Part shown: positions 3,571 through 64,000 of the stretch, in pieces
Numbering within the stretch: the first letter of the stretch is position 1
Layout of the letters: each line of letters starts with the position of its first letter
Assembly (NCBI GenBank): GCA_030390025.1
Contig: CM059432.1
Coordinates: 69,938,001-70,002,000, forward strand
Direction: 5' to 3'
Source: Squalus acanthias
Lineage: Eukaryota
Length of the DNA stretch: 64,000 nt
Notes under the pieces: generated by a model
Database searches by the model: none
The model's input: only the letters and a program-made list of their open reading frames with translations
Told to the model about the DNA's origin: nothing
Program-made: the position numbers and the translations under genes

Positions 3571-6242
3571 GGCCCTGAAATTCCCGTGCTTAATGCAGGC
3601 TGTTAACACCGGTTTGAAGAAACAAATGGTGTTCGCCACACTTCCACCAACTTCCAGCGCGGCCCGCCCTTGTCGCCATCTTGGGAAGGGTGATAGTGCG
3701 GCCGTTGCCTGCATGTGGCGGAAGAATTCAAATGAGGCAGATTGTGATGTCATTAGCGCACAACCTGCCATTTTGGACGTCGCCGCTCCACTGTATGCAC
3801 TCCTCTAACCATGCACAGCTCAACGTGTGTTCAGCTGCACGGCGGACCACCCACCAGCAGTACCTAAAGGGACACAATGCACCTTTGAGGTAAGTTGCTT
3901 TTTGCTTTTGTACTGATTCATGTACAGCTTATTTGAGTAGTGTCTTGGTGTAAGATATTTAAAAAGTTGGGAAGGTGTGCAGGGAGTGCTGCTGGATGTT
4001 GGGAAGGCATTGGCTCTTAAAGGAAGGCCTCTGACTACACCACTTGCTCCCAGTCATGGGGGCTCTACTTGCAGTCCCCCTCATGCTGCAGCATTACAGG
4101 GAGATGGAGCAGAGACAGCAAAGACAAGCTGCTCGCAGAGGCAGGAGGAGGGCTCTCAGCAGGAGGGTTTACCCGCCTAGGGTCTTCATGGAGCACTTCT
4201 CCTTCATGCACCTAAGCCAGTAGCAGTGTATTCGGAGACTCCGCATCACCAGAGAGGTTGTCACAGAACTCTTCCAGCTCTTGGAACCAGACCTGCAACC
4301 TCAGAGCAGGGCGACGACAGCTCTGCCAGTGGCCCTCAAGGTGACCGTGGCCCTTAATTTTTTCGGGAGAGGGCGACGCCTCAGCATTCCTAGCCATCTG
4401 CTGGATCACAGATTGCTGGACTGCTGTGAGACCCTGCAAGCCCCTTTTCACACTCGTAAACCCAGCCACGATGGCAGCAGTCTGAGCTTGCGTGGCAGCA
4501 AGCTGAGTGTGCATGGCAAAAGTCTGAGCTTCCACTGCAGCATTCCGATGTCGGGTCGCTTCCGCTTGTGCTGTAATAGAAGCTGCAACATCACCCATCA
4601 CACTCAGCATCATGGTTGGGTCCACAAGTGCTCTGATGGAGTTGCCTATCACTTCCATCCTGGAAATCATGGGCTCCAAGCTCAGCACAAAGCCCTGTAC
4701 AATGTTAGAGCCGGACTCCTCCATGCTCCTTGACAGTGACAAGAGGCTCTCTGACAGGCCTGCCATTGCACCTAGCCTTTATGTGTGCATGCCCATCACC
4801 CTTCTTCTGAAGGTCGACCCATCGAGGTCATCATCTGAGTCCTGTGCAGCAAAACTCGTGTGCGGCCTCGCCCTCCGGGGCGCTGGCACCTGTGCTATCC
4901 TTTCCCCCTGGCCTAGCTGCAGCTCACTTATGCCCGGTAATTCACCACGTGCAGATCCCGCCCCGATACTAACCTTTAAAGTACACGCAGTGCCATTTTC
5001 TGAGCTGGTATCTGGGAGTGTCAGATTGAGTGACGGTGCCTCTTCTTCTCCATCACTCTGCTCCTCTACTTCTTGCTGAAGAGGTTCGACTGCTGGCAGT
5101 TCTTGGATATCTGAAAGGAGAAAGGCAGAAGGGTCAGGTTGTGGTGAGGGGAGGGGGGGAAGCAAGATGTCCATGCATACACCATCAGCAGCTTGTAAGT
5201 GAGAAGTGATTGTGGGATGAGGGGGAAGTGGAATGTGAGAAGAAGGATTAGGCATGAACATCAATGGTTTCAGCCTTGCTCTGTGCCACGGCCTCAGTGA
5301 CGGCCCCTCCAATTATCTCCAGCAGTCTTCTCCATGGGGGTTAGGTTGTGCAGATGTGCTTGCCCCCCGCCTGTTTGTTACTGCTCTCTCCGATTGTGAG
5401 CGACCTTGGCCTGCAATAGAAAGGGAGTGCGTCAGTGAGTCTGGTGCAATGTGTTTGGGTGATGTGCCTGTCATGGTTGAATAGCTGATATTGTGTGCAA
5501 GGTGTGAGATGTAGGTGTGAGGCTTGCAGCAGTGGTAAGTGTGTGAGTGTGAGGTGAAGCTTTGATTGTGGGGTATGAGTTGTGATTGCTAGAGATTGTT
5601 GGTAGGTGAGTGATGGGGGTGTGGTGCATTGAGCAGTGTGTGAGGCTAGTGGTGCAGTTGGTGGGATATGGCATTTGATGACGCATTCACTCACCTTGAC
5701 CACTCGAGGAAGGTCATTAAACTTCTTCTGGCACTGGATCCAGGTCCTGGCGGTAACACTGGTGGCACTGACGGCTTCTGTTATTTTCTCCCGCTGCCTT
5801 CTTACAGTGTTCCTGGAAGGCCTCCTGCCCCCCTGTGGGTACAGGACCTGTCTCCTCCTGTACACCCCCAGCACCAAGGACTCCATTGCTGCATCGGAGA
5901 ACTGAGGTGCACGTTCTCTCCCCATTGAGACATATTTATTGCTCTAGCTCCACCAACAATGTCTAGCTCCAACAACAATGAGGTCTTTCTGATTCAGAGC
6001 CCCTCCCCTTTTAAGAAGTACAGACCAGCCTGTGACTTTGCAAGCAACTTTTAAATGGATGGCAGACTGCACAGGATATTGGGGCCCCTGTTGAGCGCTG
6101 AGCCAACCAGTAGCGCGTTTAGCACTGAGCTCAGCACTCCAAATTAATTTTGCGTGCTGCTTGCACTACTTTCAGCGGGCGTGGGCAGATCATGCATCGC
6201 GATCCACGCACCCATTTTCCGGCCTAATCAAATTTAGCCCCC
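3571..6242. mobile_element. Defective Harbinger: 5' part of transposase (+, about 4057-4365) abutting a decayed 3-exon Myb-like gene (-, 5925 to about 4370)
   Basis: LKVTVALNFF transposase motif; MGRERAPQFSDAAMESLV...RTWIQCQKKFNDL Myb exon; degenerate ends GGCCCTGAAATT and AATTTAGCCCCC. Confidence 0.8.
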
Positions 6243-8382
6243 ACAGACTTTTACAGCACAGAAACAGGCCATTTGGCCCAACAGGTCTATGCCGGTGTTT
6301 GTGCTCCATACAGCCTTCTCCCACATTACTTTATCTCACCCTATCAACGTAGCCTTCGATTCCTTTCTCCTTCATGTACTTATCTAACTGCACTTTATAT
6401 GGCTTTTTTAACCAGCGTTGCTACTTTTAATGATTTGTAAATCTGTACCTCTAGATCCTTTTGCGCCTCTTCCTCATTTAGAGTCTTAGGCCTAGAAATT
6501 CAATAAGGCCCAAAAACGGACAGGGGCACCGCGGGGCGAGATTTGCTTGCGCACATTTAGAAAGCGCAGGCAGCAGGTTAATTTGGTGCTGCCTGCTGAT
6601 TTCAATGAATTTGGCACCAGCCCAGCAACGAACGCACTGTTTCAGGCTATGCACTCAGCAGGAGGTGCAATGTTGCGCCACTATAACATCGCTGTAGCGA
6701 GGCTGCATTCTCTTAAAACAAGGCTTTCATTTTTGAAAGTAGTCTCGAGCCCTTAAAGGTGAATTGCCTTCTGAAACAGAAATTAAAATTAATTCAAAAA
6801 TCGGCAGTATTAGCACTTAAAGCTCAACTGCCTTCTGAAAAAAAACATTAAAAATCATTCCAAACTAGGCAGTCTTCAGCTGTTAAAGCTGAATTGCCTT
6901 CTGCATGTATAAAATGGTAAAAGTGCTTCAGCACTAACACAAATGGCTGAACAGGCCAGGGAAAGGGCACCCAGGGTCTCGGACGCAACACTCCATCTTT
7001 ATGCGGGGTGTCAACACTGGAAGAGAGGTCCTCTACCCACAGGGAGCAGGAGGCTCTCCAGAAAGAAAGATGTGGGACCAGATCATCGAGGCTGTTACTC
7101 CCAGCAATGTCACCCCAGGACCTGGCTCCAGTGCCCAAAGAGGTTTCATGACCTCAGAGCAGTGGTCAAGGTCAGTGAATGCATCTTCAAAAGCCATCTC
7201 CTACCAAATGTACCACGAGCCTCACACACTGCTCAATGCACGACCCCACCCCCACTTCACTCACCTACCAACAATCTGTACCAAACATGGGGCACACCTC
7301 ACATTCCTAGCCTCACCTCACCCCCTTGGAGGAGACGATGCTGGCCATTCTTGGCAGGGGCATGGCTGAGCCCTTGGCCAGCGGCAGGGCTGAAAGATTG
7401 CAAGATGCCGGTATCCTCATATGTTATCCTCCTTCTCGCATCTCACTTCCTACTTATCCCACAATATCTTATTATGTACAAGCTGCAAGTGGTGTAATTA
7501 TGCAGCTCTTGCTTTCCCACCCTCCCCTCACTACAAACCTACCCTTGTGCCTTCCTCATTTCAGACACCCAAGAAATGCAGCCTGCCCAGCCAGTGGTTG
7601 ACCAAGAAGAGGGAGGAGCGTGAAGAAGAAGAAGAAGAAACACCGTTACTCAATTTGACACTCACAGCCACTAGCTCCTCGACGTCGTCCTCCAAGGCCA
7701 TCTGCAGCCTCCCCCACTGAAAGTTAGCAGCCTTCCACCAGCCATGCTGCAGCCACTGGGGTAGCACAGCGTGACATCACTAGGATAGGCAAAGGCACAC
7801 ACAAGACAGTCACTAAGGAAATGCACAAGGGTGATTAGTTGATTCTTTAATGTAATATTGGATGCATATATGAATAAAGTTGGATTGGAAAGTTGTGCTT
7901 TGTGGTGGCTTTTGTTTCAGCATTGTGGCCAAGAGGATGCTATGATGGTCAGTAACAGAGGGATGTTAAGGTGTGGGATAAATGTTGAAAGGGGAATTGG
8001 GGTTGTGGTCACTGGTACCGCAGGCGGATGATTTGATCCCGGATATCCCAGCCAGAAAGGGGCTGTCTGGGTTGCCTCCTTCCTTCAGCTTCCTCCTTTT
8101 CTGCTTCCACCTCTTCCCTCTGCGAGCAGCTTGCCCACTTTGCTGTCTGTTTCATCTCCATCTGATGTTGCAGCCCAAGAGGGACTGCAACTAGAGCCCC
8201 CAGGACTGTGAGCAAGTGGTGTTCTCAGAGTCCTTGCTTTAACATCCAAAGCCTTGCAAGCGTCCAGCAGCACTCCCGGTACACTTTAACAATTTCTTAA
8301 ATGTATTGCACCAAGCCAGTACTCCAATAAAATATTTTAAAAACACTCCAAAAGTTGAAATCGATACTTACCTGAAAGATAA

Positions 8383-11135: not shown

Positions 11136-14100
11136 AAGTGTGTGTCCATATAAGAAGCGCTGACAGCGTGTCTGTACAACTGCTGCATGCACGTTCTACT
11201 GTGCGTGGATAGAAGAGGGCGGTATGGAGTACAGCAACATCCAAAATCGCAGTCGTGCGTCAATTCGGGCGTTGCATGCTGATTGACGTCACGATCTGCA
11301 TATTTACATGGGAGAGGCAAGCGCAGGTAATGGCAGTGCTGCCGACCTCTCCAAAATGGTGGCCTCCATGTCTCGCACCGGAAGCAGCCGGAAGCGAGTC
11401 ACCAACAAAACCGGTCTTAATGGCCGGCGCTGCAACATCAAATTTCCTGGCCTTATTTTTCAAGGAGTATTTGGACTCCTTATTCTTCCTACCAAAATAC
11501 ATAATCTCTTGACTATCTATATTGAAATTTGCCATTTACATGCCCATTCTGCAAGTTTGTTAATGTCTTGTATGTCTTGAAGTTGATCAAATGTTTGCGG
11601 ATAATGTTGCCAAGCTACAGCATGTAGAAAGAGGAGGTGTCCAAGGACATATACTTGGGGGACTCCAATAGCTACATAGCACTGGTATTCTTGGAATTTT
11701 CTATATGATATCTAATAAGAACTGCATGAAATTTCTACAAATTTCAAGTTTTAGTAATAAGCCCAGGCTAAAACTGAGATCAAAGCAGAAGATGCTCATT
11801 GCACAAGATGTGAACAGAGAAGGATGTGATCACCAAACTGATCTTGATGACTTCCTTTTAAAGAATTTTGATATTTCCTACCTTACAACAGTGATTACAC
11901 TTCAAAATACTTCATTGGTTGCTTTGGGTCGTCCTGAGGTCGTGAAAGGCACTATATAAATGCAAGTTCTTTATTTCTTTAATTGTGCAATCATTTCACA
12001 ATTACAAGTTTTCTCATTTTTTGTAGTTGGAAATTAATTTTGAGAACCAATAATTGCATAGTGTAAATATTTTGTGCTTAGCAATCAGACAATAAACCAT
12101 CACTCTCAGTCTGAAACAAATGTTTTAAGTGTGCTTAATAAGAGGAGCTAAGTAACAAACCTTAATTATAATGTTATAAGAAGTAAGTAAATGCATAGCA
12201 AGCAACAGAGATACTGAAAATATTTATAGACTACTAGTGACAGATGTTGTGTAAAACACAGCAGTTTTAATGAAGAGCCTCCATCTAAAATACTAATCTA
12301 ATGCTAAAAGATAGGCTGTGTATTTTCAAAATGTTCTTCAGATTTTCACTTGTGCAATACAATACATTTGTCTGTATTATATGTCATTGTTCCACCTACA
12401 TTATTGGACATATTGCTCTCACTCAAGCCTGGGCAATGCTCATTTCCCAGGAGCTGGGGAGATGAAAAGGATGCAGAGATCTGATACGTCAGGCCTCCAC
12501 TGCTTTTATTTTCCCCCCAGGATCCAGGATTTCTGGGGTTCCCCAGGAGTTCGGAGCAGGGCCTGCACTTACAATAGTCACAGGCACGGAGTTGGGATAT
12601 TAATGAGATGTGTTCCCGGCCCTCCCGCCTAAATTTCCCGTCCTTGCATCACAGGGGCACTGAGTTAGAGTGCACTTTTAAGAAGCCTTGCCCCTGGACT
12701 CTCCCTCAGATTGGAGAGCCTGAGGACGCAGACAGTAAACTGAATAAGGACCAACAGATAAATGGCCTTTTTTGGCAAGTACAGTTGAATTTTGGAGTGT
12801 AGAGGCTTTCTTGCTACTGTCCTGCAACAGTATCTAGAAAGCCCCCCGTGCCATGGCCAACCACAGAGCTGCAGGCTGCTCAGACCTACAGCTGTGCTCC
12901 TGATTCCAGCACTAATTCCTGTTTCAAGGCCCTGCCAGGGGTTGTCCTGTTCTGAGGGTGCAAACAGGTCCAACCCAACAAATTAGGACACACCTCAGCC
13001 TGGATAGATGGAGCTCACTAGAACTAGAAGTGCGCTCCAATGTCCAGCACATGAGCAAGAAGGGAACAATATCGGGGTCATTTTGTCTAACTCGTTTTGT
13101 AGTTAACTGGTCCTCCTAGTTTAGAATCATCTGTGAATTTAACCAGGTTTTATTGAGCTTCCGAATCCAAGCTGTTAATTTAAATTGGAAACAGTCCCCT
13201 AGAATAGGAAAAATGAGACTGCCATGCAAATGGTATGAAAAGCTTTAGGTTATAAAAGAAATTAAAAGGGTTATGTGAAATGTCAAAATTAATGTATTTG
13301 TGCAGGCATTTAAAGTAATCACAACCATTCATAGGCTTAATTGATATAATTGTGGAGTAGGAACTCAATTTTTTATTAATATAACAATATTATTAGATGG
13401 TTGACCTTGGCTAGATGTAATAATATTGATGTGTTTGCAATTGGGATGGCCAACAAGTTTTAGCCCCAAAAATTATGACAATAATAATTAACAATATTGT
13501 GGTAAAATTGTACTACATTCAAAAAGGAGATATTTTGGTCTTTAAAGACACTGCTAAGATTTCATTCTAAAATAGCATAATAATATATAGTCTCCACTAC
13601 ACTTCGAAATTCCAGATTAATCTCTCAGAAGACATAGGCAACCCCTGGAAGATTCGTCTAGGACTTGGAAAACCAGGAAAAAAATCAACTCCAGCAACAT
13701 CTCCAATATTACTTCGCTATTTTAAGATGCAAAATGTAACTAATCTAGCCACGTTTAGCTACTCTATTAATGAGAGCCTACCTGTATATTCTAATGGTGA
13801 CAAATGGCTTGAGTTCCCTATAGAATGGCCGCAAAAACCTACCATGTCCGGTGAGTATAAAATCCTAATAAAAATATCCTTGTATTATATTCCGTTCTGT
13901 CTCATAAAGTTACATAACTGAGTACTTTAATCACAATGGCCCTGAAATTCTATGGGGCCTCTGCTGGTCTCCTGCCACAACTCCAGCCCGAGACCAGCAG
14001 AACCCCCAGGGAAACAGTGTAAACAGCAGAAACCGGCAGTTTATGCTGTTTTCCTCAGGGTTCTGCTGGGTTCCTGCTGGAATTACAGTGGGACACCAGT

Positions 14101-14817
14101 AAAAATCCTGTGGAATTTAAAAGCCAATGTTTCCATCACAGTTTTACTCTTGAGGGATACAGAGATTGCAATCAAAAACTTCACACACAAGGGAAGAAAA
14201 TAAATTGGGAAGAAATCTTTATTAGTTTTAAAATGGTATTAGTATTGTGCAACAAAAACAGAAAACACTGGAGACACTCAGCAGGTCAGGCAGCATCTGT
14301 CGAGAAGTCAGTTGATGTTTCAGGTATAAACCCATACTCGGAACTAAAAGATATTACAGATGAATAGCATTTAAAAAGGAACAGAACAATGGAAAGAGAG
14401 AAGGGGGGAAAACACACATGACCACGCATACACAGTAAAGACATAGAATGACCTCTAAAGTTCCATGGTAGGGATCATGAAATCGTTAAAGAGCAGAAGT
14501 GATATGCGCAGGAAACAAAAGGAGAAATAAATTAGAAAAATTTAAGAAATAAAATATATATACAAGACACTGAGAGTGTGAGAAGAGGTAAAAAGGGATT
14601 GGTAGGTAGAATTAGAAGCATGAAAAACTGGCAAAATGGAGTAGGCTCCAGTAGCACAGGGGTCTGGTCGAAGAAAAAAGTAGGTTGGCACCAATTTCAG
14701 GCTTTAGTTACCAGCAGAGTCTGGGGCTCTTCTTTAGAACAGAGGTTTAAGAAAAGATCTGATAATTAGGGGTTTTGATAAGATAAATCGGGAAATACGA
14801 TTTCCACTAGTCAGTGA

Positions 14818-20647: not shown

Positions 20648-21292
20648 GTAAGTTTTGTTTTTGTCAACATAGAAGAACAATATATTTCTTAATCGTTTTC
20701 ATATTGCCCTAATTTCTTTCACCCACAAATTAACCTTCAAACTTTTGTTGCTCTCTATAGTCAGGTGAGAATGATTTTCACATATCTCCACAAACTGAGT
20801 GAATGTATTTTTTTGATTGTCGTGTCAGGAGGTACACGTAAGCAGTGTTTGTCTTCTCTCTGGCCAGTTTTCCCTCTGAGAGGTCCTGCTGAGAGAGTTT
20901 GAGCAGCTAGCGACTAAATTAAAAAGCAGAACCACAAAGGTCATAATCTCTGGATTATTACTGGAGCCATGAGCAAATTGGCATAGGTCAATAGGATCAG
21001 GGAGATGAATGCGTGGCTCAAAGATTGGTGTGGGCGAAGTGGGTTTCGATTCGTGGTGCACTGGCACCAGTACTGGGGAAAGAGAGAGCTGTTTCGTTGG
21101 GACGGACTACACCTGAACCATGCTGGGACCAGAGTTCTAGCAAATCGAATAACTAGGGAGGTAGATAGGGCTTTAAACTAAATAAGGCGGGGGAGGGTCC
21201 TGGTGAAGAGAAATCTAGAATGCTAAAGAGAAAAGACAAGGAAGCAGTGCAGGAAAGTGATTTGGGTAAGGATAACCAGATTGTGTCAGGAA

Positions 21293-21517
21293 GGACAAAA
21301 ATGAGAAGTCGCACAACACCAGGTTATAGTCCAACAGTTTTATTTAAAATTACGAGCTTTCGGAGCTGTTGCCCCTTCATCAGGTAAAGGTACCTTTACC
21401 TGACGAAGGGGCAACAGCTCCGAAAGCTCGTAATTTTAAATAAAACTGTTGGACTATAACCTGGTGTTGTGCGACTTCTCATTTTTGTCCACCCCAGTCC
21501 AACACCGGCATCTCCGC
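21293..21517. mobile_element. Penelope-like retroelement end (pLTR) inserted as an inverted, 5'-truncated pair within a CR1
   Basis: 198-bp palindrome plus a 27-bp unique tail, flanked by a direct repeat ATTGTGTCAGGAAGG (21280-94; 21518-32). Contains a hammerhead core. Inverted terminal structures are typical of Penelope elements. Confidence 0.8.
21396..21433 (+). ncRNA. Minimal type I hammerhead ribozyme motif (mirror copy on - strand at 21350-21387)
   Basis: TTAC-CTGACGA-A-GGGGC(AACA)GCTCC-GAA-AGCT-C-GTAA: stem I TTAC/GTAA, CUGANGA core, 5-bp stem II, GAAA, palindromic AGCT stem III, CUC triplet. Confidence 0.7.
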
Positions 21518-24500
21518 ATTGTGTCAGGAAGGGACAGAGCGTACAAACAAAAGAGTGCAATAACAAATAGGGTCCAGGTAAGAAAAAATGGTAATAAGAC
21601 AAATAGGGCCATAGTACAAAAAAATGTTAAGATGTCTAAAACTGTTAAAAAGACAAATCTAAAGGCACTGTATCTGAATGCACGAAGCATTCGTAATAAG
21701 GTAGACGAATTAACAGCGCAAATTGATGCAAACGGATACGTTATAATTGCAATTACGGAGACATGGCTGCAGGGTGACCAAGGCTGGGAGCTGAATATCT
21801 AAGGATATTCGATATTTCTGAAGGACAGGCAAAAAGGAAAAGGAGGTGGGGTGGCGTTATTAGTAAAGGATGAAATCAGAACAATAGTGAGAAACGATAT
21901 TGGCTCAGAAAATAAAGATGTAGAATCAGTCTGGGTGGAGCTAAGAAGCACCAAGGGGCAGAAAACATTGGTGGGAGTTGTCTATAGGCCTCCAAAGATT
22001 AGTGGTAATGTAGGGGATGGCATCAAACAGGAAATTAGAGATGCATATAACAAGGGTACTACAGTAATCATGGGTGACTTTAATCTACATATAGACTGGC
22101 CAAACCAAATTAGCCATAATACTGTGGAGGATGAATTGCTGGAGTGTGTACGAGATGGTTTTTTAGACCAGTACATTCAGGAGCCAACTAGGGAACATGT
22201 CATCCTAGATTGGGTACTGTGCAATGAGAAGGGGTTAATTAATAATCTTGTTGTGCAGGGTCCTTTAGGGAAGAGTGACCATAACATGATAGAATTCTTC
22301 ATCAAGATGGAAAGTGAAGAAGTCCAATCCGAAACTAGGGTCCTAAATCTAAACAAAGGAAATTACGATGGTATGAGGAGTGAGTTGGCTATGATAGATT
22401 GGGGAGCTTCATTAAAAGGCATGGCGGTGGATAGGCAATGGCTAACATTTAATGAACGAATGCATGAATTGCAACAGTTATACATTCCTTTCTGGTGCAA
22501 AAACACAAAAGGAAAAGCGGCCCAACCATGGCTACCAAAAGAAATTAAGGAGAGTATTAGATCCAAAGAGGAGTCATATAAAGTTGCCAGAAAAAGTAGC
22601 AAGCCTGAGGATTGGGAGCAGTCAAATAAATACTTTGGTTCTCTCTTCACGGAAGAGGACACAAATAACTTCCCAGAAATGCTAGGGAACCAAGGGTCTA
22701 GTGAGAAGGAGGAATTAAAGGAAATTAGTATTAGTAAAATAATAGTGCTGGAGAAATTAATGGGACTGAAAGCCGATAAATCCCCAGGGCCTGATAATCT
22801 GCATCCCAGAGTACTAAAAGAGGTAGCCATGGAAATAGTGGATGCATTGGTTGTCATCTTCCAAAATTCTATAGATTATGGAACAGTTCCTGCAGATTGA
22901 AGGGTGGCAAATGTAACCCCACTATTTAAAAAAGGAGGGAGAGAGAAAACAGGGAACTACAAACCGGTTAGCCTAACATCAGCAGTAGAGAAAATGCTAG
23001 AGTCTATTATAAAGGATGTGATAACAGGACACTTAGAAAATATCAATAGGATTAGACAAAGTCAACATGGATTTATGAAAGGGAAATCGTGTTTGACAAA
23101 CCCATTAGAGTTTTTTGAGGATGCAACTGGTGGAATAGATAAGGGAGAACCAGTGGATGTGGTGTATTTGGATTTTCAGAAGGCCTTTGATAAAGTCCCA
23201 CATAAGAGGTTAGTGTGCAAAATTAAAGCACATGGGATTGGGGGTAATATACTGGCATGGATTGAAAATTGGTTAACAGACAAGAAACAAAGAGTAGGAA
23301 TAAATGGGTCTTTTTCGAGGTGGCAGGCGGTGACTAGTGGGGTACCGCAGGAATCAGTGCTTGGGCCCCAGCTATTCACAATATATATCAATGATTTGGA
23401 TGAGGGAACCAAATGTAATATTTCCAAGTTTGCTGATGACACAAAACTAGGTGGGATTGTGAGTTGTGAGGAGGATGCAAAGAGGCTTCAAGGCGATTTA
23501 GACAAGTTGAGTGAGTGGGCAAATACATGGCAGATGCAGTATAACGTGGATAAATGTGAAGTTATCCACTTCGGTAGGAAAAACAGAAAGGCAGCATATT
23601 ATTTAAATGGTGATAGATTGGGAAATGTTGATGTACAAAGGGACCTGCGTGTCCTTGTACACCAGTTACTGAAAGCAAACATGCAGGTGCAGCAAGCAGT
23701 TTGGAAGGCAAATGGCATGTTGGCCTTCATTGCAAGAGGATTTGAGTACAGGAGCAAGGATGTCTTACTACAGTTATACAGGGCCTTGGTGAGACCACAC
23801 CTGGAGTACTGTGTGCAGTTTTGGTCTCCTTACCTAAGAAAGGATATACTTGCCAAAGAGGGAGTGCAGCGAAGGTTCACCAGACTGATTCCTGGGATGG
23901 CAGGACTGTCGTATGAGGAGAGATTAGGTCGACTAGGCCTGTATTCACTAGAGTTTAGAAGAATGAGAGGGGATCTCATTGAAAAGTATAAAATTCTGAC
24001 AGGGCTAGACAGACTGGATGCAGGGAGGATGTTTCCCCTGGCTGGGGGGTCTAGAACGAGGGGTCACAGTCTCAGGATACGGGGTAGGTCATTTAGGACT
24101 GAGATGAGGAGAAATTTCTTCACTCAGAGGGTGGTGAACCTGTGGAATTCTCTACCACAGAAGGCTGTGGAGGCCAAGCCACTGAATATATTTAAGAAAG
24201 AGATAGATAGATTTCTAGACACAAAAGGCATCAAGGGGTATTGGGGAGAGAGCGGGAATATGGTTTTGAGATAGAGGATCAGCCATGATCATATTGAATG
24301 GCGGAGCAGGCTCGAAGGGCCGAATGGCCTACTCCTGCTCCTATTTTTCTATGTTTCTATTCTCTCAGGTGGCCTAGCCAAAACTGGTGAATTTGACACA
24401 AACAGGAGACTCAAGTGAATGTCAGCTGAGCTTTGGTTTTGTTTCAAGGTCCAATTCTCCCACAGTAAGGTCAGATTTTATGTACCAGTCTAATTCAATC

Positions 24501-36840: not shown

Positions 36841-39398
36841 CTTCATGAACTCTCCCCGAAGAACTGAATCAAGTTCGTCAGACGCAATTTGCTATTAACA
36901 AATCCGTGTTGTCTGTCATTTATTAACCCATATTTTTTCAAGTGACAATTAATTTTTGCCCGGATTATGGTATCTAAAAGTTTCCCACACAGGTTATGTT
37001 AGGTTATCAGAAATTCAAGCGTTTTACATCAATTGTCGTTGTCTGTATACTAACATAATGCCAGCAACGCCACTGTTTCACTGCTATGTCATAGTTGTTC
37101 GACAACAAAGGTAGGGAATCTTTTCGAGCATCTTGAAACCTTCTTAAAACCATACTGCATCTGATATCTGTGCCTATTTGTCCAGTATATAATTCTAGTG
37201 TGCTGATTTGCAGGGAACTATGGCATACCTTTCCATTTGTAGGTTCTGGAGTAGGAGGAGGATGAGAACAGATGCATATTAGCACTTAGGTATGCCGTCA
37301 TCCAGTGGTATAGGGCCATATCCAGACATGTTTGAAGATACCTGGATGAAGAGACAAGAACTGGATGTTCTTCATCAATGGATTTACTGCTGATAATGCA
37401 CTAGAACTATTCTTAAACCTGCCAATGTTATAACGCCAAGAGGTCACCCATATTTTGCTCCATGCACCTTCATGTTCATATTCATGCTGAGCTCCAGGCA
37501 ATACTAGTGCCCTGAATAGGAAGCATGCCTCGGGGGAGGGGGAGAGGAAAAGACACCATTGCTGCAGGCAGCCATTTTGTTTCTGTATCAATGGCTCATT
37601 ACAATATCTAGCATGGGTGCTTCTTCAGGACACCATTCCCATAGACCTGCTGGTTATTTCCAGCATTTTCTGTTTTTATTTACTACAGATTTAGAGACAC
37701 GATTAGTTGAAGTGTTACTGTCTGTAATCCAGGAACAAAGGGGCCCAATTTTTAAGCCCTATGAGAAGGAGACTTACAAAGGGCATGGTTCAGGTCTATG
37801 GAAGACATAGGCTTTGGCAGTGAGTGTTACCTCACCCCCAGTGCCTTCTGAAACCTGGGTTCTAAAAGAAAGTACCACCTTAATCTCCCAAGGCTCTTGC
37901 TACAATTTGTTAATTACCTTAGAACCTCCTGCCACTGTAGTAGGTATAGGAGGCTAAGACTGAAAGGGCACACAATAGTAAGCACCAAGGGGAGGTACAG
38001 TAGCTTTAAATAGTAAGTGGTTTGGCAGATTTGTTGTCAGTGAGATGTTTTTGTCACTGACGGGATATGTGCAAAATGATTTGGAGCAAGGTAGGGGAAT
38101 GCCCGTGCGAAAGAGTCATAGAATGATCAAATGGGAACCATTGAAGTAGTGTTACATGTCAGCGAGTGACGGATTTGAGTATGTTGCCAAAAGGAAACTG
38201 AAGGCAGGGCTTAGTGGCATTGGCCTCAGATCCTAGTCAGCTGAAGATCTCCTTTATGAGCTGTGCCCACAGCTGTCTGGCAGCTGGCACAGCTCAGTTA
38301 TTGCTTTGTGATTGAAGGGCAGTCTTCACAAGCATTTACAGGGGTCACCTACATTTGCAGATGGGAGGCGTTGTTACGGTGGGTGCTACCTACTGTTGCT
38401 GTTCAGCCTAGCATCCCTACGGTGATCTTCCTAATCCTCCTCTTCCTCCTCAAAGCAGAGGAACAGGGAAGCACCAGGGAAGAGCTCACTGGTGCCCGAA
38501 GTCCAGTTTGCAATATTAAATTTAATAAACACTGGAAAAACAATGAAATATACACTTACTTAAAAACCCATCAAAAATTTTAAAGAAACAAATAAAATTA
38601 AGAAAACTTTTAAAATCATTATAAAATTCTTTTTTTTTAAGTTTTAAAAACGTAATTAATAAAATGTAGATACCTCCTTTCAGGCTACTTCTGGCCTTCA
38701 ATAATGGAGCCCACCATAAGCAGGCCCACACGTCTCCTCCCTGAGGTGTTATCTACCACCAGAGGCCACTGTGCAATAGTAGAGGGGAATGTGTCCCTGC
38801 ACCAAACCCCACCCACCCATCATTATTTACATATGGTGGGGAGAGGGTGCAGTAGCTGTCCACCCCAGCAGGGCTGAAGGAAGGTCTGCTGGTAAACTTT
38901 TGGGACAGATATCTGGTGTTGGGCCTCAACCCCATATAGAATCATAGAATGGTTACAGCACAGAAAGAGGCCATTCGGCCCGTCGAGCCCTTGCCGGCTC
39001 TCTGCAAGAGCACTTCGGCTAGTCCCACTCTCCCGCCCTTTCCCCATAGCCCTGCAAATAATTTCCCTCTATTGGCCGTCTCAGCTACACCAGTAAACGG
39101 GCAGCCAAATGGAGGAAAATACAGCACTAAAACTCCTGGAGGTCATAACAGAGTCATGCACACTTCCACAATAAGACTTGAGACCCACTTTCAGCATAGG
39201 CACAGCTCCGTCAGTGTAAGAAAAGAAAAAACTTGCATTTATATAGCATTTCATCCCAAAGCACTTTACATGCAATTAATTACTTTTGAAGTTTAATCAC
39301 TGTTGCTTTGTAGGCAAACACAGCAGACAATTTGCACAGTTTCCTTTCAAGCTATTATTTCCACTTAATTTAATTGTCTATTGTGTTTTCACTTATAG

Positions 39399-39690
39399 GC
39401 ATATTGCTGTTCATTCCAAAAAGCCACCCATTATAAAGAAAGTTCCATTGTCTGGCATGCTTAGCAATGAACACACACGAGCACAACAAGTGCCCCAAGT
39501 TAAGGATTCAAATAGCACCGGAACCTCAAAAGCATTAGATGAATACTTGGTCAAAGTCCACACTGGAGATCATTTTGGAGACAGTACAAATGCCAATGTT
39601 TATATTGTCTTATTTGGTGACATGGCACATTCAAACAGGATTCTTTTAACAGAAACAGCTGATCATCAGAATCCATTTCGAAAAGGACAG
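39399..39690 (+). CDS. Host gene exon: end of PLAT 1, linker, start of PLAT 2
   Basis: Acceptor ttttcacttatag, donor CAG|gtaagg. The 292 nt (phase 2 to 0) include EYLVKVHTGDHFGDSTNANVYIVLFGDMAHSNRILL...NPFRKGQ, a canonical PLAT/LH2 N-terminal signature. Confidence 0.92.
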
Positions 39691-39788
39691 GTAAGGAAAC
39701 ACCTCAAACTGGTCAGAGAAGGAAAATGTACTGTTTATACTTTGTACTGTTTAACCTTCTGTTATGTATTCCTCTGATAATTTCTTAG

Positions 39789-42950: not shown

Positions 42951-44195
42951 TCTGGTCCTAGAGAAAGGAAGGAAAGAAAGAAAGAACTTGGATTTATATA
43001 GCACCTTTCACAACCTCAGGACGTCCCAAACTCTTTACAGCCAATTAAGTACTTTTGAAGTATAGTCACTGTATGTATGGACACCCCATAAGTATGAATG
43101 AGAATACCCCCAAAAATACCTCTACACCAACCTCTGAAAGAAATCTGCACTTACCTGGTGCGAGGCCTCCTTCGAAAACTTGCGTTGTTTCGCTGCAGAG
43201 TTGTGCGCAGTGTAGTGGCCCTCGGATCCCACGGGTGCACCATGTGTGTAAGCATACCTGGGATCACGTGGGGCAGTGCGCCAATCAGGAAACAGAAATC
43301 TCTGATGCCTGACAGCAATCAAATTTTAAATTCACACATTACACCATTTATCTGACTCATGGGATAACAGTGGTAGTCCATAATAATCAAGTGAACATGG
43401 TCTATTTATCCCTGGTTAAGCTCAGCACCCACAATATGGAAATGCAGGGCTGGATTTTGCCAGCCGAGACGAGTTGGGGGCGGGACTGCTGCCTTCCGGG
43501 TTCTAGTCCCGCCCCCAGCGACGTCTGACGCACCCACGCTTTTTTCCCTCGATTGGCCTTGTTACCGGCCAATTAAGGGAAAGCCGGTGACAGATGACAT
43601 CAGCGTATGACGCTTCATCTGTTGAAAAATTTTTGACATATGAATTGTCAGTGTTTGACAGCTTTGAGAAGCTGTCAAACACTGAGGGGGAAAAATTCAG
43701 TTGGTTGCGCCTCCCGTTAGCGCCTTAAGAGGGCGCTAATGGGGCGCAAAGCAGCTAGCGCCTGGGCGCAGCGATGTTTGCGCCGCTCGCGAACTTAACT
43801 AGACATTTTGCGGCGGCGCTAAACTTTATTGCCGCGATCTCCTGCGCGCGCAGATTATGACGTCATACGAGAGTGCAACGCCCTTGTGGCGCCCTGGAGC
43901 AGAATTTCAGTGGCGCCCCCATCCTTACCGCCTGGCGCATCCAACGACCGGAAGAGTGGAACGCTAACAATCGCTGTGGGGCTGGGGGGGGCGCTATTTA
44001 AAGGGGGCCTCTTCCTGTCTTTCTCTGTGGTTGACATTTTTGCACCACTCGTTCTGAGAGAGAGAGAGAGATTCGGAGAGAGAGAAAGAGAGACTTCTGC
44101 ATTGAGTCAACGCTGTGTGAGGTAGTTTTGGCTACTCATCCTAACTTCGCTGGTACTTTGGTTTCTGGCCTTCATAACTTTGCTTGCTAAGAGAT

Positions 44196-45347
44196 ATGGG
44201 GGCTGCACTGATGGGGGGCGTCGTCCTGCGCCAGCTGAATCGGAGGAGACAGAGACGCAGAGAGAGAGTGTCAATGATGGCCAGACGGAGGAGGGCCAAC
44301 AGGCGTCTGTACAGGAGAGCTTACCCTCCCAGGGTATATCGTGAACAGCTCTCCTACATTCATATGTCTGATGAGCAGTGTCTGCGAAGGCTGCGCTTCA
44401 GCAAGGAGGTGGTCACTGAGCTCTGCCACCTGCTGCAGCCAGATCTGCAGCCTCAACTGAGGTCCAGGACGTCTCTGTCGGTGGCAGTGAAGATTACAGT
44501 GGCTCTGAACTTTTATGCTACTGGCTCATTTCAATCTGCAGTTGGGGACATCGCCAATATCTCCCAGTTCGCGGTGCATTGCTGCATCAGGAAGGTCACA
44601 AATGCCCTCTTTAAAAGGAGACGAGAGTTCATCTCTTTCCCCATGACCCCAGACAAGCAGCAAGAACGCGCTCTGGGCTTTGCGAGGATAGCGGGCTTCC
44701 CCATGGTGCAGGGCGCCATTGACTGCATGCATGTGGCTTTGCGTGCTCCGCATGAGAATGCCGAGGATTTCCGCAACAGAAAGGGGTTCCATTCCTTGAA
44801 TGTTCAGTTGGTCTGTGACCACAGACAGCTGATACTCGCTGTCAATGCCCACTATCCTGGCAGCTGCCACGATGCTTTCATCCTGCGCCAGACTACTGTG
44901 GCAGAACTTTTTGAGGCACCGCATCAGCCAGTTGGTTGGCTTCTCGGGGACAAGGGGTATCCACTGAGCACCTGGCTGATGACACCGCTCCGTACGCCCA
45001 ACACCCCTGCTGAGCTGCGGTACAATGAGAGCCATCAAGCTACCAGGAACATCGTGGAGCACACAATCGGCGTGCTCAAGCAACGGTTCCGCTGTCTCGA
45101 CCATTCTGGAGGAGCCCTGCAGTACTCGCCTGAGCGAGTTTCCAACATCGTAGTTGTGTGCTGCATGCTGCATAACATGGCAATCCTCAGGACCCAGCCA
45201 ATGCCACCAGGCCTTGGAGCACCACCAGAGGAGGAGGAGGAAGAGGAGGAGGAGGATGATCAGCAGCAGCACCAAGGCGTGAGGGCGGCCCACAATGGTG
45301 AAACTGCAAGGGCCGTCCGTCAGCGGCTGATAGCAAGCCGCTTCTAG
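44196..45347 (+). CDS. Harbinger DDE transposase (HARBI1-like family), 383 aa from the ATG at 44196
   Basis: Uninterrupted ORF with RLRFSK, LNFYATGSFQ, GAIDCMHV (D), NRKGFHSLNVQLVCD, PGSCHDAFIL, LLGDKGY (D), RNIVEHTIGVLKQRFRCL (E) and CCMLHN. Confidence 0.95.
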   Translation: MGAALMGGVVLRQLNRRRQRRRERVSMMARRRRANRRLYRRAYPPRVYREQLSYIHMSDEQCLRRLRFSKEVVTELCHLLQPDLQPQLRSRTSLSVAVKITVALNFYATGSFQSAVGDIANISQFAVHCCIRKVTNALFKRRREFISFPMTPDKQQERALGFARIAGFPMVQGAIDCMHVALRAPHENAEDFRNRKGFHSLNVQLVCDHRQLILAVNAHYPGSCHDAFILRQTTVAELFEAPHQPVGWLLGDKGYPLSTWLMTPLRTPNTPAELRYNESHQATRNIVEHTIGVLKQRFRCLDHSGGALQYSPERVSNIVVVCCMLHNMAILRTQPMPPGLGAPPEEEEEEEEEDDQQQHQGVRAAHNGETARAVRQRLIASRF

Positions 45348-45658
45348 GCCCCTGCTGTGGAAATGGCTTCTGCCGTTGAGAACAGCATGAATGAACCCAA
45401 CACGCAACCCCTAAGCCGGCCAAGGCACCAATGATTCCAAACACCAAACATGTATATTTTGAGTACCAAATCTTATTTATTTTACAAACTCTGTGTGTGT
45501 CATTTCTTCATGACAAACTCATACAAATAAACACAAAAAAACAGTCATTACCATAACTGGTTCTCACAACCTGGAGATCATGTGCAAAACACTCAACAAA
45601 AGTTTGACCACGAACCTCGGCCTTTAATAAAAAAATGACCAGCATTTTGTCACACCTC

Positions 45659-47502
45659 CTACATCGAGGGTGAACTCCTTCCCGTGCGCCCTTCCCCCCT
45701 TCTTACCCTACTGCTCCTCCGCAATGGGACCTCAGTGGCTGCAGCAAGGCTGGTGGAAGGCTGCTGACTGTCAGGCCCTGACAATGCAGATGCCCTTGAG
45801 GGACGGCCTCGACCAGTTCTGGGCCTGGAGGGCCCGGCTGCAGACTGCACCAACTCTGCATGGGCGGCAGCAGTCTGTCCTACAGGCGGTGGCAACTGCA
45901 GTGGAGAAGTGACAGTGGTGGCAGCAGGAATGCTGTCATCTTGAGCGAGGACAGCAACTCCCTGCTCGACCGGCACACTGGCACTCCCACGGGGCAGCAC
46001 CTCAGCATCCGGAGTAATCTGCTGGAGCACAGATTGCTGGCCTGCTGCGGCACGGTGAGAGCCCCGGGGAAATGTGAACGAACCAGCGAGGATGGCAGCA
46101 GACAGTGCTCGCGTGACCTCAATCTGACTCTGCATGAGAGCAGTCTGAGATTGAATTGCAGCACTGAGCTTCAGTGTCGCATCCGCCTGCGCTGCAGCGA
46201 AGTGCTCCACACTCCTTGCCAGTGCTTCAATGCATTCGGGCACCCTACCCACTGCAGCCATGAGCTCAGTGTGCATGCCCACCGCCTGGGTGTTCATTTC
46301 CGCGATCAGCCGCTCCTCCTCTGCGTCCAGTGCAGCAGGACTCGCTGGCATACTCTCCCTCCGGGGAGAAGGCCCCCGAGCTTCCCTACCCCCATCGCGT
46401 TGCTGCAGCCCGCTGGGTCCTGGAGCTTCACCCTCATCAGACCCTTCCCCCCTGCTCCCCTCCAGGGAAGGCGTGTTCCCAGTGTCGGCATGGGCTTCCT
46501 CGGGAGAGGGTGGCACTGATGCTCCGGCTTCCTCTTCCTCCTCGGCTGCAGCTTCACTCCCACTGGCAGCTTCAGGGCCCGTCTCCTCAGCTGGTGAATC
46601 ACCATCTGAAAGCAGGGAGGTACAAGAGTGGCTTTAGCGTGAGGACAGGGTGGCAGTAAGGGAGGAATAAGTGCAGCGAGTTAGTAAGTTGGATTGAAAG
46701 TGTCAAAGGCTGGTGTTGTGAGGGACAAGTGGAAGGACAGAGGACAAAAAGGTGATGACCTTACCATTGCTGTCCAGAACGGGGTCGGCGTCTCCAGTGG
46801 CGACGGGACCTATCACCCGGCTTGCCACAATCCTGTGGACGCGCTCCTCAAGATCGCTGAGGGGTTGCAGCTGAGGCCGCCCTCCACCCGTCCGTTGCTG
46901 CTGTCTCCTATTATGCGCCAGCTTGGCCTGCAGGAAAAAGGACGGCGTCTGAGTAAATATACAGCCATGGTCTTGCCTGATGTGCCTCCCATAGGTGAAT
47001 AGCCCTTACTGTATACAGCCATGGTCTTGCCTGATGTGCCTCCCATAGGTGAATAGTCCTTACTGTATACAGCCATGGTCTTGCCTGATGTGTCTCCCAT
47101 AGGTGAATGGCCCTTACTGTATGCAAAGTATGGAATGTGTGTGTGTGCTTCATGAAAGGGCCATAGGTGTTGGATGAGTGTTGTTAATTGTGGTTTAAAG
47201 ACCCTCTGGCCATAGAGTGAGGTTGAGATGGAGGGATGGAGAGGTATTGCAAAAAAGCCACTCACCCTGACGACCCGAGTGAGGTCGTTGAACTTTTTCC
47301 GGCATTGGACATGGGTCCTGGGCACCATGCTCCTGGAGGAGACGCGCTGAGCCACCTCCCTCCACACTCTTCTGTAGTCGCGCGGCAAAGGCCTCCTGCC
47401 ACTCTCTGGGTACAGTATTGGTCTTCGGCGCTCCACCGCGCCAACCAGAGCATCCAAGGCCCGCTCGGTGAAGCGCTCAGCTCGTTCTCTCACCCTCTCC
47501 AT
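45659..47502 (-). CDS. Harbinger Myb/SANT-like DNA-binding protein, 3 exons (47502-47266, 46927-46765, 46605-45659), about 448 aa
   Basis: Exon 1 RFTERALDALV...VWREVAQRVS...RTHVQCRKKFNDL ends at gtgagt. Exon 2 AKLAHNRRQQQRTGGG...LSDLEERV lies between ctgcag and gtaag. Exon 3 follows ctttcag and joins the 285-aa ORF in frame. No stops. Confidence 0.88.
46958..47122. repeat. 54-bp tandem repeat, about 3 copies, in intron 1 of the Myb-like gene
   Basis: The unit TATACAGCCATGGTCTTGCCTGATGTGCCTCCCATAGGTGAATAGCCCTTACTG starts at 46958, 47012 and 47066, with only a few substitutions. Confidence 0.95.
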
Positions 47503-48559
47503 CCTTGGCTGGAAAAAGGATTCACAGGTCTCTCCAGGCCGAGATTCAAGGCTGCAATGAGCAGGATGTGGCTGGGGAGCAAGATCGCCCCCCCCCTTTA
47601 AGAACTGGCCGGCGCCAGTGTGTCTGTGTTCCCTCGCTAACTGGCAGCACCTGCGCTGCGCTCGCGCTCTGAGTTAGCGCCTCACTCCTCGGCCTTTGCG
47701 CCTTAAGACAGGTGTGCAGCGCCTGATTTAGCGCTCCAATCACCTCCCGGGGCGTTATAAGTGAAGTTTCCAGTCAGTGGCGATAATTAGCGCCAGGCGC
47801 TAATTTTTGTGCCCGCACGATATTTGCGCCCCAAACGGGGCGCGACTGAATTTTTCCCCCTGACAATCTCTGTTCTAAGGTGAGCCCTTGCACAAAGGCT
47901 CACCAAAACCTCTCTCCTCATCAGAAAGCAGATGGCTGCTGAATCTGAGAATGCAGCAGCCATTCTGTCATCTCTGCCGTTGAGATGAGGCACCTCCGGA
48001 TCCTCAAAGGTTGAAGCCTGCAGAAAGAAGCAAAGGTAAGGAAACATTTTCCAACACTTTACACTCACCTCTCATACTCATCTGTCCACACTTGCACCCA
48101 TCACTCACCTCTACAGCTGACATATCGACTCCTCTCACCCCCGCAGACCCACTGCTCGCCTCACTGACCCTGGCAAGGTTCACAGCCATCGGGAAGCCCG
48201 CACTTGCAGGCGTAAAATGGGGAAAAGCCTCAAAACTGCCTGTTAACTACCTGTTAACAGGCAGTTAATTGGCTCTAATCCCCTTCCCGCCTCAAGGAGA
48301 TGGGTCCCTGCACGACTCGGGGACCCACCTCCCAGGAAGATGGCACGGAGGCGGGTTGGGCGGGGTTGGTACCCGCTCCCAGTTTCTGCCATTTTCCCAG
48401 CAGTCCCGCCTCCAAACCCCCCTCCTCAGGGCTGGTAAAATCCAGCCTGCAGTGATTTTTTTTTCACTCTTATGTGGTTTATCGTAAGTTTGGGATTACA
48501 TGCATTAAATCCCGAACTTACGATCTGTCAAGTTCTGACTGTATTGCCCTCATTGCTGG

Positions 48560-50119: not shown

Positions 50120-53100
50120 AAATCATAGAATCGTAGGATGATACAGCACAGAAGGAAGCCATTCAGCCCATCTTGCCTGTGCCGGCATTTAGGTAGAGTT
50201 ATGCAATTAATCCCACTCCCCTGCTCGTTTCCAATAGCTCTGTAATTTTTTTTTCCTTCAAGTATTTATCCAATTCTCTTTTGAATGTTACTATTGAATC
50301 TGCTTCCACCACCCTTTCAGGCAGTGCAGTACAATTCACAACAACTCGCTCTGGAAAAAAAATGTGTTCTTGTGTCGCCTCTGGTTCTTTTGCCAATCAC
50401 TTCCTTCTGTGTCCTCTGGTTACCGACTCTTCTGCCACTGGAAACAGTTTTTCCTTATTTACTCTTCATGATATTGAACACCTCTATCAAATCTCCTCTT
50501 AACTTTCTCTGCTCTAAGGAGAACAATCAGTCTCTCCACGTAACTGAAGTCTGTCATCCCTGATACCATTCTAGTAAATCTCTTCTGCATCCTCACCAAA
50601 GCCTTGACATCCTTCCTAAAGTGTGGTGCCTAGAATTGAACACAATACTCCAGCTGAGGCCTAACCAGTGTTTTATAAAGATTTAGCATAACTTCCTTGC
50701 TTTTGTACTCTGTTTCTTTATTAATAAAGCCAAACATCCCATATGCTTTTTAATAGCCTTCTCAACTTGGCCTGCCACATTCAAAGCTTTGTGTACATAC
50801 ACCCCCAGATCTCTCTGTTCCTGCACCCCCTTTAAAATTGGACAACTTAGTTCATATTGCCTCTCCTCATTCTTCCTATCCTATCAAAATGTATCACTTC
50901 ACACTTCTCTGCGTTAAATTTCATCTGCCATGTGTCTGCCCATTTTAGCAGTCTGTCTACGTCCTCCTGAAGTCTGTTACTATCCTCTTCAGTGTTTACT
51001 CATTTCTGAGTTTCGTATCATCTGCAAACTTTGAAATTATGCCTTGTGTACCCAAGTCCAGGTCATTAATATATATCAAAAAGAGCAGTGGTCCTAATAC
51101 CACCCCCTGGGGAACAACTGTATACTTCCCTCCATTCTGAAAAACAACCATTCACCACTACTCTCTGCTTTCTGTCCCTTAGCCAATTTTTTTCTCTAAA
51201 AGTCTTCCCACCACCGATGTTAGGCTAACTGACCTGTAGATTTATGCCTCTCCCTGATTTTAAACAGGGGTGCAACATTTGCAATCCTCCAGTCCTCTGG
51301 CACCACCCCTATATCTAAGGAGGTTTGGAAGATTGTGGCCAAAGCGTCCGCAATTTCCACCCTTACTTCCCTCAGTACCCTAGGATACATCCCATCCAGA
51401 CCAGGTGACTTTTCTATTTTGAGGACTGCCAAACTTTTAAGTACCTTCTCTTTATCTATTTTTATTCTATCCAATATCGCTACTGCCTCCTCCTTTACTG
51501 ATACATTGGCAACATCCTCTTCTCTATTGGAGACAGATGCAAAGTACTCATTTAATATCTCAGCCTTGCCCTCTGCCTCCACAAGAAGATTTCCTTTTTG
51601 GTGCCTAATTGGCCCCACCCTTCCTTTGACTAACCTTTTACTATTTATGTGTTTATAAAAGACTTTTGGGTTCCATTTTATTAGCCGCTAATTTATTCTC
51701 ATACTCTCTCTTTGCCCCTCTTATTCCATTTTTTAGATCTTCTCTGTACTTTCTGTATTCAGCTTGGTTCTCTACTATACTATGAACCTGACAATAGTCA
51801 TAAGACACCATTTTCTGTCTCATTTAAACCTCAATATTTTTAGTCAGCCAGAGAGCTCTAGCTTTGGCTACCCTTCCATTCCCCCTCATAGGAACATGTC
51901 TACTCTATACCTAAACCATCTCCTCTTTGAAGTCTTCTCATTGTGTTTTGCCTCCCAATTTTTGATTCCAAACACCTGGGCCAGATCCCTTTTCAACTCA
52001 CTGAAGTTAGCCCTCCTCCAGTTAAGTAGTTTTATGCTTGATTGTACTTTGTCCTTTTCCATAACTATTATAAACCTGATGATATTATGATCGCTGTTCC
52101 CCAAATGCTCCCCCACTTAAACATGCTCCACCTTTCCCACTTCATTCCCCAGAATTAGATCCAGCACTGCTCCTTCCTCATTGGACTGGAAACATACTGA
52201 TCAAGAAAGTTCTATTGTACACATTTCAGGAATTCCTCCCCCCCTTTTGCCCTTTACACTGTTACTATCCCAGTCTATATTAGGATAACTGAAGTCCCCC
52301 ATTATCACTACTCTGTAGTTCGTGCATCTTTCTGTACTTTGCCTGTGAATCTCCTCCGCTATCTCCTTCCCACTATTTGGTGGCCTACAGTATACATCCA
52401 GTAGCGTAATAGTTCCTCTATTGTTCCTTAATTGATAATGGGGGATTTCAGTTATCCTAATATAGACTAGGAAAGTAACAGTGTAAAGGGCAAAGAGGGG
52501 GAGGAATTCCTCAAATGTGTACAAGAGCACTTTCTTGATCAGTTTGTTTTCAGCCCAATGAGGAAAGAAGCAGTGCTGGATCTAGTTCTGGGGAATGAAG
52601 TGGGGCAAGTGGAGCATATTTCAGTGGAAGAGCATTTGGGGAACAACGATCATAATATCATCAGGTTTAGAATAGTTATGGAAAAGGACAAGGTACAATC
52701 AAGTGTAAAAATACTAACCAAATGTTAACCAAATAGACTCTGTCTTTGGCCCTTCAACGACATCATCTCTCTCCAGTGCTATAATAGTTTATTTTATCAG
52801 TACTTCTGCCCCCCCCTCCTTTTTTTCCTTCCTTATCTTTCCTGAATACCATGTAGCCAGGAATATTAAGTTCCCAATCCTCCCCTCTTTGAGGCCGGTC
52901 TCTGGTATTACCACTATATTATAGTCCCATGTGGTGACCTGTGCCTGCAACTCACCAACCTTATTTACCATGCTCCTTGCATTTACGTACATGCACTCCA
53001 TCTTAGACTGCTTCGCATTTTCTCCCTGTCTGATTCCTCCTATTTCTGAACTGTTCTTTACTCCTCTCCCAGTCCTCTGTGCACCTTTTTTCTCCTCTCT

Positions 53101-63220: not shown

Positions 63221-64000
63221 TGTGGTGGTTGGTGGTCAATCATCTCAGCCGCAGGACATCACTGCAGGAGTTCCTCAGGGCAGTGTCCTCGGCCCAATCA
63301 TCTTCAGTTGCTTCATCAATGAGCTTCCCTCCATCATAAGGTCAGAAGTGGGGACGTTCGCTGATGATTGCAGTGTTCAGTTCCATTCACAACTCCTCAG
63401 ATAATGAAGCAATCCATGCCCGCATGCAGCAAGGCCTAGGCGACATTCAGGCTTGGGCTGATAAGTGGCAAGTAACGTTCACACCACACAAGTGCCAGGC
63501 AATGACTATCTCCAACAAGCGAGAGTCTAACCACCGCCCCTTGACATTCAACAGCATTACCATCGCTGAATCCGTCACTGTTAACATCCTGGGGGTCACC
63601 ATTGACCAGAAACTTAACTGGACCAGCCACATAAATACTGTGGCAACAAGAGCAGGTCAGAGGCTGGGTATTCTGCAGCAAGTATCTCACCTCCTGACTC
63701 CCCAAAGCCTTTCCACCATCTACAAGGCACAAGTCAGGAGTGTGATGGAATACTCTCCATTTGCCAGGATGAGTGCAGCTCCAACAACACTTAAGAAGCT
63801 CGATACTATCCAGGACAAAGCAGCCCGCTTGATTGGCACCCCATCCACCACCTTAAACATTCACTCCCTCCACCACCGGCGTACCGTGGCTGCAGTGTGT
63901 ACCATCTACAAGATGCACTGCAGCAACTCGCCAAGGTTCCTTCAGCAGCACCTCCCAAACCCACGACCTCTACCACCTAGAAGGACAAGAGCAGCAGGCG
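63221..64000 (+). mobile_element. RT 3' part of the second CR1-group LINE family (as at 8580-11135); runs off the window
   Basis: GVPQGSVLGP and FADD motifs; collinear with about 10115-10870. Confidence 0.9.

Follow-up and report, generated by a model that had tools for sequence, protein, structure and literature searches.

The window, a stretch of 64,000 nucleotides on contig C8 of a 3.7-Gb genome, contains a 223-bp insertion within a decayed CR1-type LINE, which is split between ORF1 and ORF2 (Table 1). The main part of the insert is a palindrome of two 99-nt arms (21293-21391 and 21392-21490) that meet without a spacer at GGT/ACC and differ at one position, A21379 versus C21404. This is the loopless structure that the initial annotation had described, and the 15-bp target duplication that it reported around the insert proved to be an exact direct repeat. 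The outermost 2 bp of the palindrome (21293-94) are part of this duplication, and at each insert junction 2 nt are compatible with both target and element. The right arm alone has a tail, formed by 27 unpaired bases that separate it from the second duplication copy. The insert, which has no TATA box, is promoterless, and there is no ORF between the arms. Folding of 21260-21540 predicted a near-perfect 99-bp stem for the palindrome, with a z of -25 against 200 shuffles.

Table 1. Features of the insert and of the CR1-type LINE that harbors it (positions in the window).
Feature	Position	Strand	Remarks
Host CR1-type LINE, ORF1 end, GDSL/SGNH esterase-like	20987-21181	+	E 0.0007, below cut-off
Left target-site duplication copy	21280-21294	+	Final 2 nt also match the element; empty site in 1330 CR1 copies
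Tail-less inverted PLE 5' leader (pLTR) copy	21295-21391	-	Spans about Inr+4 through the inner end cluster
Minimal type I hammerhead motif, CUGAUGA variant	21350-21387	-	Mirror of the + motif; predicted cut after position 21354
Sole arm mismatch, pairs with 21404	21379		C-to-T at CpG, hammerhead-sense strand
Joint of head-to-head arms, self-complementary GTAC, 4-nt overlap	21390-21393		Parent leader has TGTACC there; 32-bp centre in 60 loci
Direct PLE 5' leader (pLTR) copy	21392-21490	+	127/128 positions shared with the ORF-linked L211 leader
Minimal type I hammerhead motif, CUGACGA variant	21396-21433	+	Predicted cut after C21429 (C17)
27-nt PLE tail, single arm	21491-21517	+	Parent tail reaches the ORF ATG a few bases on
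Right target-site duplication copy	21518-21532	+	First 2 nt also match the element; right junction unique
Host CR1-type LINE, ORF2 (APE endonuclease + RT)	21803-24274	+	Stops near 21800 and 22900 break the frame

The empty site, with a single copy of the 15-mer, occurs 1330 times in the genome at no more than one mismatch, and in all four empty-site copies that were inspected the 15-mer was present once. Three CR1 copies used for comparison matched the host at 86-96% per piece, and the right junction has no second occurrence in the genome when up to 2 mismatches are allowed. PLAT/LH2-domain exons are present on the + strand, in the window at 39280-39777 (weak, at about 39.5 kb) and upstream at C8:69723913, 69789363 and 69911476. 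Judged from these flanking exons, a large multi-PLAT gene, which we take to be LOXHD1- or RP1-like, probably spans the window on the + strand, and the insert probably lies in one of its introns. Among the other repeats in the window is a GC-rich DNA transposon of the Harbinger type (44178-47673), with an open 389-aa DDE_Tnp_4 transposase on the + strand and a Myb/SANT gene on the - strand, and a decayed relative near 4200-7500. Self-comparison of the window also brought up a decayed 198-bp palindrome (13933-14130, 68%) and an inverted repeat with 283-bp arms at 90% (52025-52715), neither of which gave a match to the arms of the insert, and two inverted CR1 3' portions (1024-2930 and 61312-63221) that are 95.5% identical over 1.9 kb and lie 58 kb apart.

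Copies of the family were counted genome-wide by sequence patterns, and a 47-mer of the arm gave 3251 exact matches. Full copies are arranged as 3' UTR, TATATATA, TCACT, hammerhead, leader, tail, ATG and ORF, and the stretch from leader to ORF is contiguous. The window arm is identical to the ORF-linked leader of copy L211 at 127 of 128 positions. The parent ORF matches RVT_1 of Pfam (E 1.4e-8), carries a PADKGG (DKG) motif, and by eye ends in VYLIRC-x3-C-x3-WYIGET followed by R, H, H, E and N, which is of the GIY-YIG type (CCHH). A Pfam search with the parent protein gave no direct GIY-YIG match, and a PDB sequence search did not match the endonuclease. The first match of this protein in the Atlas was an RT/GIY-YIG cluster (0.97), with GIY-YIG on 47% of the members. 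The Penelope origin proposed in the initial annotation was therefore confirmed through the link of the arm to an RT/GIY-YIG-type ORF, and the genome search for a parent encoding both domains was successful, with the endonuclease recognized by eye and through the Atlas and without a Pfam match. A single RT/DKG ORF with a GIY-YIG-type end, an arm that is the pLTR of this ORF, and tandem units were all found, as expected for an EN+ Penelope-like element (PLE), and the insertion itself shows an inverted 5'-truncated copy, a one-sided tail and a target duplication. The insert is almost certainly of PLE identity, and consists of two head-to-head copies of a hammerhead-bearing PLE 5' leader, one of them tailed. 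A C-x4-C-x2-C linker precedes the endonuclease in the parent protein. As described in PMC8557442, a CX2-5CxxC linker between RT and EN is absent in Penelope/Poseidon and marks Neptune/Nematis, and by this linker the parent would be of the Neptune/Nematis type and not a Poseidon.

That the insertion is recent, as had been proposed, fits the perfect duplication, the single mismatch in 99 positions and the near-identity to the parent leader, whereas the many open frames belong to a sister subfamily. Open frames of 921 aa are found in many copies, some of them in tandems with a period of 3.14 kb, and the copies with open frames that were fetched have stem I CAC/GUG instead of UAC/GUA. This sister subfamily looks very recently active. 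L215-L225 are arrays of 2-4 PLE units (~3.14 kb period) with several open 921-aa frames, and are homogeneous within arrays. Giant insertions of the head-to-head type are L183 (C1:44.008-44.015 Mb) and L031, whose 1.4-2.9-kb arms carry long open PLE frames on both strands.

The minimal hammerhead motif that had been suspected on each strand is present in the sequence of both. On the + strand, stem I (21396-99/21430-33) is followed by CUGACGA (21400-06), an extra A (21407), stem II (21408-12/21417-21) and GAAA-GC-UC (21422-29), and the motif on the - strand mirrors this. The CUGANGA/GAAA/UH core, the extra base before 10.1, the G10.1-C11.1 pair and the palindromic 15.2-16.2 are those of a minimal type I hammerhead. 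The monomer fold was no better than that of shuffles (z -0.7), and AGCU pairs two hammerhead copies in a predicted dimer. Stem I reads UAC/GUA in 192 of 241 motifs and CAC/GUG in 32, a compensatory change that represents one change between subfamilies and not independent events. The scan with hammerhead models that had been suggested as a check did not support the motif, since Rfam gave no hammerhead match in the 64-kb window at gathering score, and none among the 18 matches in 21250-21560 at E<=10. The miRNA matches in Rfam were below the cut-off, reflect the hairpin only and were rejected. The initial annotation had placed the arm mismatch at the variable N of CUGANGA, which is right for the position (N7), but the ribozyme relevance that this implied is weaker. 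The C-to-T change was found on one arm in 8 of 50 listed same-centre loci, and on both arms in none. Because it recurs as a CpG transition at other loci, selection on the ribozyme is not needed and was rejected, and CpG decay is the likely origin of the mismatch. Transcription in either direction had been expected to yield a hammerhead together with its full antisense. The geometry of this proposal is right, with the antisense coming first. This holds for read-through RNA of both strands, so that the motif is predicted to be locked. The predicted probability of stem II in such RNA is near 1e-17, and the modeled RNA would form a 99-bp hairpin with the ribozyme locked in it. No RNA run with this sequence was among the sequencing records listed, and the insert is probably without a function of its own.

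Pairs of this kind are common in the genome. Short back-to-back anchor pairs, 30-70 nt apart, were found at a minimum of 880 loci, and the sister subfamily accounts for 349 back-to-back pairs; only 86 pairs have shorter centres. The exact 32-bp centre of the window palindrome is shared by 60 loci. Exactly one arm was tailed in 49 of the first 50 pairs, and in 32 of 35 pairs of the sister subfamily. Of 73 parsed loci, 68 had a duplication of 11-15 bp, and in 53 of these it measured 12-13 bp, which puts the 15 bp of the window locus at the top of the family range (3/68). Directly after the duplication, 79 of 136 primed-strand ends have a G, compared to a background of about 0.21, and this preference is uneven between the sides (51/68 versus 28/68). 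The overlap between target and element, a statistic from 41 of 47 parsed loci, had means of 1.5 and 1.8 nt compared to null values of 0.75 and 0.93, and lay above all 500 shuffles. The sequences suggest that PLE palindromes may have preferred targets. No insertion hotspot was found at the CR1 position of our insert, since 13 of the 78 flank sets, a total that counts 4 duplicates, resembled the host CR1 and none lay there. Several loci had related surroundings: L044 (C1:57.83 Mb) and L170 (C5:9.31 Mb), two palindromes whose centres differ, sit in related repeat copies and share one 12-bp duplication; the flanks of L081, L088 and L166 are related to each other; and the insertions L059, L077 and L084 lie no more than about 15 bp from a single CR1 3' site.

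The 5' ends of the arms are clustered. Among 100 unselected arms (the first 100 matches of the 47-mer), 42 end at -3 to +14 of an Inr-like A and none at -14 to -4; of the remaining arms, 10 end further 3', 11 end at -15 to -49, and 37 extend further upstream. The TATA-Inr-like site of this cluster lies just 5' of the hammerhead, and the peaks at +4 and +10/11 coincide with GTAC words. The sister subfamily has a short leader variant without GTAC, and there the Inr-like A, 7 nt before the core, is the end point of 16 of 56 arms; the shift between the subfamilies was not significant (p 0.086). Judged by eye in the shorter-centre listing, about 5 of 100 listed arms start at the hammerhead cleavage site. 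Given these few ends, hammerhead-cleaved RNA was rejected as the usual template. From their end positions, it seems moderately likely that the short arms were copied from uncleaved transcripts at their 5' end, with copying limited by this end; the peaks at GTAC words and the non-significant shift count against it. A smaller second cluster of 5' ends is located at the TATATATA box (-22 to -36; L115, L032, L152, L156 and L019) and includes tail-to-TATA tandem joints.

For the family as a whole, we consider it quite likely that such an insertion is one event of twin target-primed reverse transcription with two uncleaved RNA templates. The RT/GIY-YIG protein, probably as a dimer, would nick both strands about 12-13 bp apart, often before a G. 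Each 3' end would then pair over 1-4 nt with an RNA and prime at one of two internal start zones, and as these lie about 35 nt apart, one arm would receive a tail. Synthesis of both cDNAs would continue across the uncut hammerhead as far as the TATA-Inr-like site, close to the RNA 5' end. A short self-complementary word, GTAC in our insert, would then let the two cDNA ends anneal, followed by fill-in. In the in vitro work of PMC11167929, both strands are cut and extended by a PLE protein that uses two internal start sites and an uncleaved RNA template and is predicted to be dimeric. The same work describes priming without homology to the cut DNA, which counts against the overlap-primed step (PMC11167929).

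Whether one or two templates are used can be examined through the haplotypes of the arms. Among 50 pairs, both hammerheads were readable in 34, and 25 of these, with two common haplotypes, were informative. The arms differed in hammerhead haplotype in 9 of the 25, where random pairing expects 21, indicating that pairing is partly independent and partly from a single source; several of the discordant pairs differ at 2-3 sites and in loop length. The other 16 pairs were concordant, which is far above random pairing and indicates that many events use one source. In the sister subfamily, one of 21 pairs was discordant at multiple sites, but with mostly one haplotype across its arms this comparison has little power. 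The direct units within an array had one haplotype in the 7 arrays that were fetched, and one distant extra copy in L224 differs. At the long pair L117, 12 of 14 non-CpG arm differences are common to other loci. The arms of the window palindrome have the same haplotype and are thus concordant, so that this locus alone cannot separate one template from two.

A fold-back on a single template, in which one cDNA or antisense RNA loops at GTAC and copies itself, while mixed arms result from later conversion, is the published hypothesis in its antisense-RNA version (PMC3846280). It would explain why the window arms are identical except for one CpG, why most informative pairs are concordant and why self-complementary words are favored at the junctions. 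However, the arms that result when one cDNA folds back on itself are nested and identical, and therefore non-nested or discordant pairs need two template passes, or else conversion or lopsided deletion. The tailed arm was 5'-shorter in 7 of the 14 pairs that differ by >50 nt, among 18 long pairs, which means that in these the arms are not nested. Non-nested arms could be explained by lopsided deletions at the centre of a palindrome, and discordant ones by later gene conversion, but the discordant pairs were not more diverged downstream, with 1 difference in 9 loci compared to 12 in 25, a comparison that leaves out two discordant loci because of indels. The primer-end overlap and the tight 12-13-bp duplication at both ends also argue against self-copying, and we regard the fold-back as unlikely. 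The family statistics favor twin priming from two uncleaved RNAs over the published self-priming idea.

Spread of the palindrome as a non-autonomous unit of its own, as a MITE-like or retrozyme-like hairpin, is improbable. It would account for the same 32-bp centre at 60 loci, but these are a small share of the pairs, centres vary widely, and arm ends and haplotypes differ even among same-centre loci; moreover, the insert has no TATA box and its hammerheads are not in direct tandem. A self-propagating palindromic element with fixed ends and centre was rejected as well, since both vary. That the host retained the hairpin for regulation or silencing, as a source of dsRNA or small RNA in an intron, could be imagined from the probable intronic position in the multi-PLAT gene and from the long predicted stem, yet the insert is young, unique, located in a decayed CR1 and one of hundreds, which makes this reading highly improbable. 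Assembly fold-back is very unlikely, and the least probable of all, because, although the palindrome is loopless and no read or contig spanning the locus was present among the sequencing records listed, the unmirrored flanks continue the CR1 colinearly around the duplication, the tail is one-sided, a CR1 empty site exists, and the at least 880 pairs have varied joints. The two end clusters also reappear as loose ends elsewhere, both in the contigs of two further sequencing runs and in raw reads of another organism; few opposite-strand joints were among those listed.

Twin priming is known from LINE-1, where both nicked ends prime cDNA and the cDNAs join by microhomology, resulting in an inversion within the duplication. 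In LINE-1 the two primings occur at separate sites of a single RNA and no segment is duplicated, whereas here the same segment is copied twice, sometimes from different source haplotypes. The architecture itself is already published, and the window locus is a young, ordinary PLE stub. Pen2, Pen2a and Pen3a of Adineta are described as head-to-head inverted pLTRs with palindromic joints, a tail, a TSD and a TATA/TCACT leader, for which self-priming on an antisense template was proposed (PMC3846280), and this layout is reported to be general among EN+ PLEs (PMC8557442). The Adineta insertions share with ours the head-to-head pLTR, the palindromic joint, the single-arm tail, the short duplication, and TATATATA followed by TCACT (PMC3846280, PMC8557442), but our insert consists of two leader stubs without an ORF between the arms. 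The duplication of 12-13 bp in the element family here compares to 8-10 bp in the Adineta cases, and where the Adineta paper explains the joint by self-priming on antisense, the haplotype data favor two templates (PMC3846280).

PAc, the Poseidon of Anolis carolinensis, also has a hammerhead near the ORF start and two internal RT starts that define the tail, and its protein likewise cuts and extends both strands, on an uncleaved RNA template and at AT-rich targets (PMC11167929). In contrast to this Poseidon-clade element, the parent here has the CX4CxxC linker of the Neptune/Nematis type, its ORF starts after the tail instead of inside stem II, and the short primer-template overlap and the G after the cut are seen here (PMC11167929). 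The minimal type I hammerheads of metazoan PLEs share the extra base 9/10.1, G10.1-C11.1, the palindromic 15.2-16.2 and the short stem I; low activity is reported for them, and opposite-strand pairs were noted 100-700 bp apart, whereas the pair here abuts without a spacer (PMC4209133). Non-LTR retrozymes are, like our insert, non-coding, pLTR-derived and equipped with a type I hammerhead, but form direct tandems of at least two hammerhead units instead of an inverted pair (bioRxiv 10.64898/2026.07.22.740005); with an inverted pair, and no other copy within the window, retrozyme identity was rejected. How PLEs form inverted pLTRs and tails is described as still open (PMC8557442, PMC11167929), and the two-template reading was not found in the literature searched, which omitted most subscription papers, including older PLE reviews.

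The window locus itself is of little weight, and the useful part lies in the family statistics, which are of modest mechanistic value. The hundreds of short palindromes form a countable natural record of PLE integration, in which arm haplotypes test for one or two templates, 5' ends test for hammerhead cutting of the template, and duplications show the geometry of the cut. That PLEs integrate as a two-RNA dimer, with a symmetric 12-13-bp staggered cut from which two distinct transcripts are primed at two fixed internal positions, has in our view a slightly better than even chance of being correct. If so, copying to the 5' end of uncleaved RNA would stamp hundreds of hammerhead palindromes into the genome, and the arms of mixed haplotype would be the genomic proof, replacing the self-priming model of inverted pLTRs.
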